Positions 51,001 to 54,000 of a stretch of DNA of 64,000 bases are shown here, in pieces. The number at the start of each line of letters is the position of its first letter. Position 1 is the stretch's first letter. Source of the stretch: an uncultured Nitrospiraceae bacterium (GTDB taxonomy: Bacteria; Nitrospirota; Nitrospiria; Nitrospirales; Nitrospiraceae); contig CAVPLT010000004.1 of NCBI GenBank assembly GCA_963706325.1, positions 1-64,000 on the forward strand. The letters run 5' to 3'. The position numbers were made by a program.

Positions 51001-54000
51001 AGGTGACGGGGTTTGTCGGCGGCGGTGCCCAACCGACACCGCTTTCGCCTGAGGAAGTCGATTCGTTGTTGAAGCAGGTGGACGCCGGTGCGGCAGGTCC
51101 TCGCGAGCAGGTTCGGTTTATCAAGGGTGACAATGTCCGCATTGTGGACGGTCCGTTCCTGGGTTTTAACGGCGCCGTGGATGACGTGGATTCCGACCAT
51201 AGCCGGGTGAAAGTCTTCGTGAGTATTTTTGGCCGGTCCACGCCGGTGGAGCTAGGATTCTTGCAGGTCGAGCGTATTTGAGGTCACTGGATTGGCGTTG
51301 CTGGACAGGGACCCGCTCCCAGCCTGTGCGCCCGATCCGCAGTTCTCATGGAGTAACTCATGGCTAAGGAAGTATCCGCACAAATTAAGTTGCAGATTCC
51401 GGCTGGCAAGGCCAACCCTGCGCCGCCTGTTGGCCCCTCGTTGGGGCAGCACGGTGTGAATATCATGGAGTTCTGCAAGCAGTTCAATGCGAAAACGCAG
51501 AAGGACGGGGATAGCATCATCCCGGTGATCATAACGGTCTACAAAGATCGTAGCTTTACCTTCATCATGAAGACCCCTCCAGCTTCGGACTTGCTGAAGA
51601 AAGCCGCCGGTATTATCAAGGGCTCCGGGGTGCCCCATAAGGATAAAGTCGGGAAGATCAGTCAGGCCCAAGTCCGGGAGATCGCCCAAAAGAAATTGTC
51701 CGACCTGAATGCGGCTGATCTGGAAGGCGCCATTAAGATCATCCAAGGGACAGCGCGCAGTATGGGCATCACCGTCCAGTAAGTCTCGGTAGAGTGAACC
51801 TCCGGCGGACGTGAAGGAGTAGCAGTATGGGAAAGAAGTTGACCGCGGCTCAAGAAAAGATCGAGCCCAGGTTCTATGCGTTGAAAGAGGCGGTCGAGGC
51901 CGTCAAAGAGGCAGCGTTTGCCAAGTACGATGAATCCGTGGATCTAGCGATTCGCTTGGGGATTGATCCGAAGCGATCGGATCAAATGGTACGCGGTACG
52001 ACCGCGTTACCGCACGGAACCGGGAAGAAAGTCCGTGTGCTTGTCTTTGCGAAGGGCGAGAAGGAACAAGAGGCTCGGCAGGCCGGCGCCGATTTTGTCG
52101 GCTCCGATGACTTGATGGAAAAGATCAAGGGCGGGTGGATGGATTTTGATTGTGCGATTTCCACCCCAGATCTGATGGCCTCCGTCGGCAAGCTCGGAAA
52201 GGTATTGGGTCCCCGCGGTCTGATGCCGAATCCGAAAACCGGCACGGTGACCTTCGAAGTTGGCAAGGCTGTGAGCGAGATTCGTAAAGGCCGCGTCGAG
52301 TTCAAGGTCGAAAAAGCCGGGATCGTTCAAGTGCCGGTTGGGAAGGTCTCATTTGATGCCCAAAAATTGTACGACAATGCCCATGCGGTGTTGGAGTCTG
52401 TCGTCAAAGCGAAGCCGTCCTCCTGTAAAGGCCGCTATCTCAAGAGTGTGACGATGTCGAGCACCATGGGGCCGGGCGTGAAGCTGGATCCCGTGGCCTT
52501 GTCGAAGTTGTGGAGTTGAGAACGTAGAGGTTCTCAGTAAGGGGAAAGGCATGAAGAAAGAAGAGAAGGCAACAGCGATCGCGGAATTGACGGAAAAATT
52601 CGGTCGCGCCCGCTTGGCTATTCTGACGGAGTGCGCCGGCATGCCCGTCAATCAGATGACCGAGTTGCGCAGGCAGTTACGTGGCGCCAAGGCCGAGTAT
52701 TGCGTGATCAAGAATACCCTAGCCGTCCGTGCGTCGGCCGGGACAAGTCTTGCCGATGCGAAGCCGCATTTTAAGGGACCAACGGGGTTGGTGATCGGCT
52801 ATGACGATCCGGTTCTCCCGGCGAAAATCTTGCGGGATTTTATTCAGGCTGAAAAACGCTCGGAAAAGATCAAAGTTACTGTCGGGGTACTGGAAGGCCG
52901 GTTGGTGCAAGCGGCGGATCTCAACGCCATTGCGCAGCTGCCGAAAAAGGAAGTGTTGATTGCGATGCTGCTGTCGGCCATGCAGGGTCCGATTCGCGGC
53001 GTGGTGTACGCGTTGAGCGGAGTATTGAGCAAGTTCGTGCGAGTCATTGCAGCCATTCAGGATAAAAAGAAAGGGGAGGGCGACATGTCAGCAGCAGAAG
53101 GAACCAAGTTGTCACAGGATGAATTGATCAAGGCAATCGAGAGCATGAGCGTATTGGAATTGGCGGATCTCGTGAAGGGACTGGAGACACGTTTTGGAGT
53201 GACCGCGGCGGCGCCGATGGCCATGATGGCACCGGCCGGCGGCGGAGCGGCTGCGGCACCGGCAGAGGAAAAGACATCGTTCGACGTCATTTTGGTCAGC
53301 GCGCCGGCTGACAAGAAAATCCAGGTCATCAAAGTCGTGCGCGAACTTACCAGCCTCGGACTTAAGGAAGCGAAGGACTTGGTTGAAGGCGCTCCGAAGC
53401 CCGTCAAGGCCGGCGTGACCAAGGAAGAATCCGATACTATGAAGAAAAAGCTTGAAGAGAGCGGGGCTAAAGTCGAAATCAAGTAATCGCTCGGTGATCT
53501 GCGGTGCGAGTTGTCCGGTGGGATGGCGCGAGGCGTTCATCTCCTTATGAGCTTGGAGGGCTAACGAATGTCGGAATCGACTCTTTCGGAGTTTGTCGAA
53601 CGCAAGGATTTTTCTCGGATTCGTACGAGCATCGACATTCCCGATCTCATTGAAATCCAAAAGCGGTCCTACGAGGAGTTCCTCCAGATGGAGGTCGAGC
53701 CGGATCGTCGCAAGGATCAAGGGTTGCAAGCGGCATTGGCCAGTGTCTTTCCCATCACGGACTACAACAACACCGCCGCGCTGGAGTTCTCCAATTACAC
53801 CTTGGGGACACCCAAATACGATGAGCGGGAATGCCTTGAGCAGGGAATGACCTATGCCGTCCCGCTGAAACTACGGGTGCGACTGATTGTCTTCGACAAG
53901 GAAGACAAGGGTCCTAAGAAGAAAGTCCTGGACGTGCGAGAGCAGGAAGTGTATGTCGGTGAACTTCCGCTTATGACGGAGCGTGGGACGTTTCTGATTA

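Follow-up and report, generated by a model that had tools for sequence, protein, structure and literature searches.

In the window analysed here (a 64,000-nt stretch of DNA from an uncultured Nitrospiraceae bacterium), the genes of the ribosomal stalk proteins uL10 and bL12, rplJ and rplL, run as a single open reading frame of 311 codons (52551..53486, plus strand) with no stop codon between them. This fusion is almost certainly real and kept by selection. We suggest, with a probability of roughly 0.65, that it constitutes a nested two-product gene, from which both a covalent L10-L12 chain and, through a start codon lying inside the frame, free L12 would be made.

The L10/L12 stalk recruits translational GTPases. 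In its canonical form, encoded by an rplJ-rplL operon, it is the L10(L12)4 complex of Escherichia coli or the L10(L12)6 complex of Thermotoga maritima (PDB 1ZAV, 1DD3). To our knowledge, separate chains have been assumed to make up the stalk in all organisms, the length of a single helix determining its copy number (4, 6 or 8). The order Nitrospirales, in which the fusion was found, includes the main nitrite oxidisers as well as the complete ammonia oxidisers.

The fused frame, its domains and its operon

The features of the locus are as follows (AF2 denotes the predicted structural model; residues are those of the 311-aa protein):

51827..52519, plus strand: rplA (uL1), 5' neighbour; NCBIfam TIGR01169, 333.9 bits, on 51827-52516
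52551..53486, plus strand: fused rplJ-rplL ORF, 311 codons and TAA; ORF listing, DNA reading, Pfam and NCBIfam
52551..52934, plus strand: globular rRNA-binding part of uL10, residues 1-128; PF00466 on 1-97, AF2 pLDDT about 90 over 1-130
52947..53075, plus strand: uL10 helix alpha8, residues 133-175; AF2 helix and alignment with 1zav_A
53070..53084, plus strand: internal Shine-Dalgarno (SD) block AAAGGGGAGGG with its 4-nt spacer, encoding K174-G-E-G-D178; DNA reading
53076..53114, plus strand: predicted disordered linker of 13 residues (176-188) from alpha8 to the bL12 N-terminal domain; AF2 pLDDT <50
53085..53087, plus strand: internal ATG (Met179), putative start of a free bL12 of 133 aa; ATG conserved in orthologues
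53115..53195, plus strand: bL12 N-terminal dimerisation and L10-binding domain, residues 189-215; PF16320 on 189-235, AF2 helices 189-197 and 201-215
53196..53279, plus strand: flexible Ala/Gly/Pro hinge of bL12, residues 216-243; AF2 pLDDT <50 at 216-241
53280..53483, plus strand: bL12 C-terminal factor-binding domain, residues 244-311; PF00542 on 244-311, 98.7 bits
53568..57527, plus strand: rpoB, 3' neighbour; NCBIfam TIGR02013, 1902 bits, on 53568-57524

A preliminary description of this DNA had placed one L10-L12 frame at these coordinates, with the Pfam domains Ribosomal_L10 at residues 1-97, Ribosomal_L12_N at 189-235 and Ribosomal_L12 at 244-311; the ORF listing and the Pfam search returned the same frame and exactly the same domain limits. 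Both halves are complete by the NCBIfam equivalogs. The L10 model NF000955 matches residues 4-173 (profile positions 1-167 of 168) with 165.9 bits against a cut-off of 85, and the L12 model TIGR00855 matches residues 185-311 (profile positions 2-125 of 125) with 152.4 bits against a cut-off of 84.4, while PF00466 scores 94 bits on the uL10 part. Archaeal L10 models stay far under their cut-offs on the fused protein (e.g. NF003095, 28 bits versus 381). A canonical uL10 is a separate polypeptide with its own stop codon; here, no stop occurs within residues 1-311.

Against T. maritima L10 (1zav_A), the uL10 helix alpha8 aligns without gaps, the alignment running through residue 179 of 180. The helix has the long form of Thermotoga and is the predicted platform on which the N-terminal dimers of bL12 dock. 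The bL12 N-terminal domain reached a pLDDT of only about 58-62 in the AF2 monomer model. Among PDB chains, none spans both the L10 and the L12 parts, all 38 of 38 matches being confined to one of them.

The locus retains the surroundings of the rplKAJL-rpoBC cluster, as rplA lies 5' and rpoB 3' of the fused ORF, both on the same strand, and 31 nt separate the rplA stop from the rplJ start. The likeness to the canonical rplJ-rplL operon thus extends to both proteins, their order, the rplA/rpoB context, all the domains and the SD and ATG of rplL. What differs is that the rplJ stop and the intercistronic spacer are missing, and that the SD of rplL lies within the rplJ frame. A genome search found no rplJ or rplL elsewhere in the source genome, and the fused ORF is the sole copy found. 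At the level of the stalk, the difference from the canonical system is that one L12 per L10 is encoded as a covalent extension. An L10 leader, too, is absent from the Rfam matches, which in 48000-58000 consisted of tRNAs only (E up to 1). Scanning 51700-53700 for promoters and terminators was uninformative, with no promoter-like sites and three terminator-like sites against 2.4 expected. The contigs of one RNA run cover 53078-53364 and 53415-53700 only and nothing of the L10 part; being assembled contigs, they say nothing about where transcripts start or end or how abundant they are, and a gap in their cover is not evidence.

Distribution of the fusion and selection against stop codons

The order was sampled with 151 genomes, three to four times as many as in the preliminary description, which had reported the uninterrupted frame from every Nitrospirales family. 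This still holds, as matches come from all four families and all 27 genera. Of the 148 genomes with a match, none has a stop inside the frame. In 142 the stop-free frame is full-length (residues 1-310/311) and in six more it is cut at contig ends. The 142 orthologues are 142 unique coding sequences with amino-acid identity as low as 54%, and many come from single-contig genomes. The three genomes without a match are 99, 80 and 82% complete. A PF00542 search of these three gave a sub-threshold 20.7 bits in the first (G093, 20 contigs) and nothing in the other two (G038 and G068), and the operon was not found in these assemblies. The protein database agrees with this picture: all of the 120 homologues listed are 310-312 aa long and carry PF00466, PF27436, PF16320 and PF00542, in line with what had been claimed for the best 120 homologues and the first, third and fourth of these families.

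Outside the order, 160 Nitrospirota genomes were searched, and in none of the 133 with a match is the frame open. Thirty-one of them give a joint match holding 1-6 stops and 102 give at least two separate matches, the best E-values (1e-35 to 1e-64) falling in the partial-match range. In the two sister orders, which belong to the same class, the rplJ stop of 8/8 genomes is followed by about 30-138 nt and then by an SD and ATG, with the unfused call at one locus (L256) resting on two separate matches. Among the genomes sampled, the covalent fusion within Nitrospirota is confined to Nitrospirales.

The limit to Nitrospirales drawn in the preliminary description therefore stands within the phylum (0/133 open outside the order, 0/8 in the sister orders) and falls beyond it, where rare fusions are found. 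The protein database holds 21 fused representatives from outside the order (50%-identity clusters), 297-332 aa long and 34-46% identical, each in a near end-to-end single match; all five that we tested have PF00466, PF16320 and PF00542. The source names of some of them are Armatimonadota, Chloroflexota/Dehalococcoidia, Bipolaricaulia and Fervidibacterota. Rare and independent L10-L12 fusions are therefore present in four or more phyla besides Nitrospirota. They are sporadic, mostly small clusters of 1-16 members at 90% identity, whereas an order-wide span is seen in Nitrospirales. Among the loci listed for the fused query, the frame was open in one of 80 genome loci (a Nitrospirota MAG) and one of 80 metagenome loci. 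Gly-Gly stands 1-4 residues ahead of the junction Met in 14 of the 21 (counted by eye), and the junction DNA of one fusion reads AAA AAA GGA GGG TCA TCA ATG. This suggests that fusions with an internal start laid out in the same way have arisen anew in several other phyla, most of them keeping the Met and an SD-like Gly-Gly.

Selection almost certainly protects the frame in Nitrospirales from interruption. The 3-4 codons directly 5' of the SD core offer about three one-step routes to a stop, and the branches of the gene tree add up to about 20 substitutions per site when every position is counted and to about 54 for third positions alone, so that under neutrality about 20 or more stop-creating mutations 5' of the SD would be expected; 0/142 were observed. 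This expectation is a rough estimate, which assumes equal base-change rates; the third positions are saturated, and a stop at this place is maybe not strictly neutral.

The junction as a candidate initiation region

Direct reading of the junction DNA gives ATT CAG GAT AAA AAG AAA GGG GAG GGC GAC ATG TCA. The SD GGGGAGGG occupies 53073-53080 and the ATG of Met179 follows 4 nt further on, which agrees with the earlier claim of a strong SD at this distance from the L12 ATG. The further claim, that the internal start has been retained, gains from the comparison of orthologues. The junction ATG is present in 142/142 full-length Nitrospirales sequences, and GGAG or GGAGG stands within 20 nt 5' of it in 140/142, the core being missing in the other two. 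The 16S rRNA tail of the source genome has the canonical CCUCC. Its predicted duplex with the junction has a mean energy of -9.68 kcal/mol, versus -7.69 at the rplJ start. At 775 other in-frame ATGs the mean is -3.88 kcal/mol, and just 1.4% of these attain the junction median. RNA folding is also low at this point, as a 50-nt window on the junction ATG has a mean folding energy of -3.7 kcal/mol versus -12.9 for windows placed elsewhere in these genes, and in 119 of the 142 sequences it falls within the least-structured 5% of the gene.

Conservation resembling an SD could in principle reflect a constraint on the peptide. However, two observations argue against this. Codon choice is restricted beyond what the amino acids demand: the synonymous-codon entropy of Gly175 (0.70 bits) is the lowest among 16 conserved Gly columns, the rest of which range from 1.55 to 1.95 bits, and that of Lys174 is the second lowest among 24 conserved Lys columns. 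Moreover, in 14 of the 15 sequences of one family (f3) the peptide K-G-E-G-[D/E]-M is replaced by K-E-[D/E/G/A]-x-M, and the DNA still reads AAGGAGG. At the level of sequence, the junction has four independent signatures of an internal initiation region, and initiation at Met179 would very probably yield free L12.

A proposed two-product stalk gene and its rivals

Based on these observations, we propose the following scenario. In the common ancestor of Nitrospirales the rplJ stop and the rplJ-rplL spacer would have been lost in an ancient, true gene fusion, after which the old SD region of rplL came to encode the residues that close the L10 part (K-G-E-G-D). Ribosomes that initiate at the ATG of rplJ (52551) would read through to give the 311-aa covalent uL10-bL12 chain, and those starting at the internal SD/ATG (53073-53087) would give the free bL12 of 133 aa. 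bL12 acts in dimers, two or three of them per uL10 (PMC7768734; PMC1635324). Free bL12 would be needed in excess over the fused chain, given that bL12 dimers dock on alpha8 and that no second rplL was found. The fused chain would form a stalk base carrying one permanently tethered bL12, whose N-terminal domain could pair with a free bL12 owing to the 13-residue linker. If such a pair took the last site on alpha8, the complex would comprise L10-L12 and five free L12; alternatively, the tethered copy would belong to an extra, hanging dimer.

The weightiest alternative to the persistence of the fused chain is that a protease cuts the linker, so that the gene encodes a polyprotein yielding separate mature L10 and L12, with free L12 possibly still made and the fusion merely coupling their synthesis. 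The linker is predicted to be disordered and thus accessible, some ribosomal proteins are known to be processed at the N terminus (e.g. bL27 in Firmicutes), and sequence data cannot tell a cleaved chain from an uncleaved one. However, conservation in the linker concerns the SD as a nucleotide motif and not the peptide. Since the f3 peptide differs while its SD is unchanged, the linker shows no sign of a conserved cleavage motif. Stops being selected against is also harder to explain if the chain is cut later, as a stop codon would yield these products at a lower cost. We consider cleavage improbable, and the fused chain probably persists uncleaved in ribosomes. The opposite extreme is that only the fused chain is made, every L12 being covalently joined to L10 and the internal SD and ATG being an unused relic. 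Nothing speaks for it beyond the lack of direct proof for internal initiation. Against it stand the dimeric mode of action of bL12 (see above), the full Thermotoga-type length of alpha8, the finding of no further rplL copy, and the fact that a relic would not keep its ATG in 142/142 sequences, its SD codons under synonymous constraint and the RNA around it so little folded. We therefore regard it as very unlikely.

An equally slight chance is given to programmed recoding, in which a -1 or +1 shift at the Lys-rich stretch would cause early termination, so that mainly free L10 would be made and the long frame rarely finished. The junction is indeed A-rich (GAT AAA AAG AAA), and an X XXY YYZ heptamer occurs within 20 codons 5' of the junction Met in 10/142 sequences, nine times as A AAA AAG. 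Such a slippery heptamer is, however, missing from the other 132. An SD stimulates -1 frameshifting when it is upstream of the slippery site, whereas here it sits 3' of the Lys codons. The first stops in the alternative frames are scattered and unconserved (from -28 to +422 nt relative to the Met in the -1 frame and from -23 to +61 nt in the +1 frame). The rarity of the heptamers and the lack of conservation of these stops led us to reject the programmed frameshift. The chance that the rplJ stop was deleted by a sequencing or assembly error, or that the ORF is a pseudogene, is practically negligible. The open frame is common to 142 genomes, each with a coding sequence of its own, and DNA contigs from three runs of three studies span the junction with no indel and no difference there, which refutes the artefact and upholds the preliminary description on this point as well.

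Returning to the nested gene with two products, there are even odds that the Nitrospirales stalk is structurally distinct, with uL10 continuous with one full bL12 in a way convergent with the tail of P0, selected since the origin of the order and reinvented elsewhere. If this is so, the tethered bL12 may seed assembly on alpha8; alternatively, it may add an extra dimer, lifting the number of L12 C-terminal domains past the six held by alpha8. In either case, one factor-recruiting domain could never dissociate from uL10. A comparable arrangement exists in archaea, where the aP0(aP1)6 complex is described as having seven binding sites owing to the C-terminal element of P0 itself (PMC7768734). 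In archaeal and eukaryotic P0 (uL10), as in the fused protein, the stalk base itself bears a factor-recruiting element besides the docked dimers. However, the P0 tail is a short peptide common to P1, while the Nitrospirales uL10 bears a whole bL12 with its dimerisation domain, hinge and C-terminal domain. The likeness is a non-homologous convergence in working, and the Nitrospirales form arose through the loss of a stop codon in one bacterial order.

As a gene, the locus resembles infB (encoding the IF2 isoforms), clpB and cheA of E. coli, in which an internal in-frame start gives two products from one frame. A single frame, an internal SD and a start codon are common to all of them. Nevertheless, the short forms of infB, clpB and cheA are truncated versions of the same protein, whereas in Nitrospirales the short form would be a complete, other ribosomal protein that assembles onto the long one. 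The locus might thus constitute a clean case of two different ribosomal proteins encoded in one frame with an internal start. The covalent L10-L12 chain, in turn, would be a natural experiment on how the tethering of L12 affects stalk assembly, stoichiometry, L12 exchange and factor recruitment.

That the two genes are fused had been recorded before. As the preliminary description had mentioned, one database annotation flags it, and we found the entry: 'Fused 50S ribosomal proteins L10 and L7/L12 (modular protein) [Nitrospira defluvii]', 95% identical (P0047). A full-text literature search, whose scope did not extend to the supplementary tables of Nitrospira proteome papers, returned no study discussing the fusion, and PMC7203096, PMC13001810 and PMC3578206 contain nothing on it. 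New here are the conservation throughout the order, the limit of the fusion in the phylogeny, the finding that stops are selected against and the evidence on the initiation region. In other sources the same 310-311-aa proteins are labelled just L7/L12 or L10. As annotation pipelines give them only one of the two names, marker sets that count rplJ and rplL separately may mis-score these genomes.

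The fused reading frame and its locus

The rplJ-rplL gene is a single ORF of 311 aa (52551..53486, +) in the ORF listing of the window. Pfam assigns Ribosomal_L10 to residues 1-97, Ribosomal_L12_N to 189-235 and Ribosomal_L12 to 244-311, and the NCBIfam equivalogs of L10 (residues 4-173, 165.9 bits, cut-off 85) and L12 (residues 185-311, 152.4 bits, cut-off 84.4) are both matched at full length. Together with the junction DNA, ATT CAG GAT AAA AAG AAA GGG GAG GGC GAC ATG TCA, these results confirm the preliminary description of an L10 continued into a complete L7/L12 without a stop codon. 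Two features of the junction were read directly from the DNA:

53073-53080, + strand: internal Shine-Dalgarno sequence (SD), GGGGAGGG
53085-53087, + strand: in-frame internal ATG (Met179)

The gene is preceded by rplA, across a spacer of 31 nt (52520-52550), and followed by rpoB; the whole assembly (8 contigs, 96% complete), searched in six frames, yielded no second rplJ or rplL. The Rfam L10_leader had no match within 48000-58000, and leader-based autoregulation of the classical kind, exerted by the L10-L12 complex, may be missing here or sited elsewhere. Four tRNA genes (48214-48639 and 50241-50312) lie upstream of the ribosomal protein cluster. Many MAGs carry the fused gene on a contig of about 13-15 kb, either about 2.3-2.8 kb or about 11.6 kb in, and the same assembly-breaking repeats seem to flank its region across many genomes.

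An AF2 model, based on 51 aligned fused sequences (mean pLDDT 78), divides the chain as follows:

residues 1-128: L10 globular part, pLDDT about 90
residues 133-175: helix alpha8, pLDDT about 77-82
residues 176-188: linker, pLDDT below 50
residues 189-197 and 201-215: L12 N-terminal helices, pLDDT about 58-62
residues 216-241: hinge, pLDDT below 50
residues 244-310: L12 C-terminal domain, pLDDT about 75-88

With a flexible linker of 13 residues, the tethered N-terminal domain could probably reach back to alpha8 and settle there together with a free L12 partner. No PDB chain spans both parts, as all 38 matches (E <=1e-10) cover one part only.

Conservation and origin of the fusion in Nitrospirota

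The order was sampled with 151 genomes of 4 families and 27 genera, and 148 of them contain a match to the fused gene: 61 of 62 in f1 (plus the window's own genome), 62 of 62 in f2, 19 of 21 in f3 and all 5 in f4. Residues 1-310/311 lie in one stop-free frame in 142 genomes, and in the other six (G005, G081, G062, G035, G056, G032) the match is cut by contig ends, as the lengths of their contigs confirm. The 142 coding sequences are all distinct, with amino-acid identities to the window protein down to 54%, and in three DNA runs, each from a different study, contigs cross the junction with no indel and no difference there. The claims that the frame is uninterrupted in every family of the order, and that it is not an assembly error, therefore both stand. 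The nearest named database proteins belong to Nitrospira, which NCBI places in Nitrospirales.

Three genomes, G093 (99% complete), G038 (80%) and G068 (82%), gave no fused-gene match, and a Pfam search of them returned one sub-threshold match only (PF00542, 20.7 bits, in G093). G093, of the same genus and in 20 contigs, seems to be an otherwise complete assembly from which an essential operon is missing.

Outside the order, 133 of 160 Nitrospirota genomes had a match, and none of the 133 contains an open L10-L12 frame: in 31 the joint match holds 1-6 stops, and in 102 there are at least two matches, with best E-values in the partial-match range. The 27 genomes without a match belong mostly to family f15 (21 of its 28 genomes); these 21 are 66-95% complete, and the seven matched f15 genomes have an ordinary L12 (63-69% identity). 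Centred searches found the genes unfused in class-level outgroups as well (7/7 genomes of one sister order, 1/1 of the other). The reported absence of the fusion from other sampled Nitrospirota is upheld by these 133 matching and 8 sister-order genomes.

In these sister orders, the rplJ stop is followed by roughly 30-138 nt and then by the SD and ATG of rplL. The L10 of T. maritima (1zav_A, 180 aa) aligns without gaps through alpha8 and ends one residue past query residue 174, which therefore places the normal L10 C-terminus at about K174/G175. Judged from this alignment, the G-E-G-D that follows would be the former rplL SD and spacer, drawn into frame. A plausible precursor layout, one stop codon short of fusion, is seen at locus L165 of genome G210 (family f16, outside the order), where rplJ ends GGAGGTTCA TAA ATG, with the SD inside rplJ and the stop abutting the rplL start; the outgroup loci read at the junction came for the most part from in-frame joint matches and are therefore no representative sample of the frame relation.

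The open frame itself appears to be under selection. At codons 171-174, which directly precede the SD core, an average of 3 single-base changes would create a stop, and across the whole linker about 10. For the 142 sequences, the gene tree has a length of ~20 substitutions per site (~54 at third positions), and therefore ~20 or more stop-creating mutations would be expected at codons 171-174 under neutrality, a rough estimate from a simple model with equal base-change rates and saturated third positions. None was observed in the 142 sequences. The direction is clear: a return to two separate genes is selected against. We regard it as established that two universal ribosomal protein genes are fused order-wide, that selection maintains the fusion, and that a conserved initiation region is embedded in it.

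Probable internal initiation and its alternatives

All 142 sequences have the junction ATG, and 140 have GGAG or GGAGG in the 20 nt before it, in agreement with the earlier report of a strong SD retained before the L12 ATG. The 16S tail of the window's genome carries the canonical anti-SD. Its predicted pairing at the junction averages -9.68 kcal/mol (range -12.7 to -7.0), compared with -7.69 at the rplJ start and -3.88 at 775 in-frame ATGs elsewhere in these genes, only 1.4% of which reach the junction median. Synonymous entropy is lowest at Gly175 among 16 conserved Gly columns (0.70 bits; others 1.55-1.95) and second lowest at Lys174 among 24 conserved Lys columns. In 14 of 15 f3 sequences the peptide reads K-E-(D/E/G/A)-x-M, and the DNA is still AAGGAGG. 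This pattern indicates that the constraint acts on nucleotides. RNA structure in the gene is also weakest in the 50-nt window with the junction ATG at its centre (mean -3.7 kcal/mol; rplJ start -5.3, other windows -12.9), which falls within the least-structured 5% of windows in 119/142 sequences. The ATG/SD motif, the pairing, the nucleotide constraint and the open RNA, four independent signatures, all point the same way, towards an internal start.

Some junctions and RNA segments deserve separate mention. The most structured RNA is the stretch coding for the Ala/Gly/Pro hinge (~53205-53250, codons +40 to +55 after Met179), with a mean 50-nt window energy of -24 to -26 kcal/mol versus the average of -12.9 (142 orthologues). 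The remaining f3 locus, L061 (genome G041, genus g20), has an f1-type junction, KKGEGEM (AAAGGAGAAGG), and is closer in sequence to L060 of f1 genus g3 than to its own family; its contig may be mis-binned (G041 contamination 3%). In three of the five f4 junctions (L138, L139, L142), another in-frame ATG precedes the junction ATG by three codons (GGA ATG GGA GAG ATG), and L12 could therefore start at either.

According to the literature, bL12 works in the form of dimers, with two or three of them to each uL10 (PMC7768734; PMC1635324). In the alignment to 1zav_A, alpha8, the uL10 helix that docks these dimers, has the full long-type length. Because dimers are needed, alpha8 is long and no other rplL copy was found, free L12 would have to come from the fused frame. 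A model in which all L12 stays attached to L10 conflicts with both this stoichiometry and the initiation signatures. Programmed frameshifting at the junction Lys codons is not supported, as 132/142 sequences lack a slippery heptamer and out-of-frame stop positions are not conserved. The main rival is that the linker may be cleaved after translation; no conserved peptide motif supports this, and it would be difficult to account for selection against a stop codon were the link later cut. Both the original observation and its interpretation hold overall, and from the sequence data we infer a product pair, fused chain plus free L12, and with it a covalent stalk.

Fusions and analogues in other lineages

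The fusion is already flagged in one annotation and is otherwise unstudied: in one database source the N. defluvii protein is titled 'Fused 50S ribosomal proteins L10 and L7/L12 (modular protein)', elsewhere these 310-311-aa proteins go under the name L7/L12 or L10, and the texts returned by full-text literature searches contained no discussion of an L10-L12 fusion.

An exhaustive profile-free search covered 1.84 billion representatives. Among the best 150 matches, 22 proteins of 297-332 aa align to nearly the whole query in a single stretch, with 66% identity in one case and 34-46% in the other 21. Source names (20/21 looked up) place some of them in Armatimonadota, Chloroflexota/Dehalococcoidia, Bipolaricaulia and Fervidibacterota, in clusters of 1-16 members, and all three Pfam domains were present in 5/5 proteins tested from other lineages. 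Among matches listed for the fused query, the frame is open in 1/80 genome loci (a Nitrospirota MAG) and in 1/80 metagenome loci. L10-L12 fusions outside the order are rare, and the proposed restriction to Nitrospirales stands within the Nitrospirota sample but not across other phyla.

Read by eye, 14/21 of these proteins have Gly-Gly one to four residues before the junction Met, and L308, one other-lineage fusion for which DNA was obtained, reads AAA AAA GGA GGG TCA TCA ATG. The SD-and-ATG layout has thus been kept in independent fusions, in line with the two-product model.

The nearest analogue in how it works is P0 of archaea and eukaryotes, by convergence and without homology; its own C-terminal region is described as duplicating that of P1 and adding a seventh factor-binding site (in a passage of PMC7768734). 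Five further database proteins, P0125 (593 aa), P0138 (953 aa), P0153 (692 aa), P0162 (1056 aa) and P0172 (803 aa), show 6-8 tandem matches to the bL12 C-terminal domain, with 7 PF00542 copies each and no L12_N domain by Pfam in P0125 and P0162. Such proteins may be another way to multiply factor-binding domains, or may be unrelated to the ribosome.
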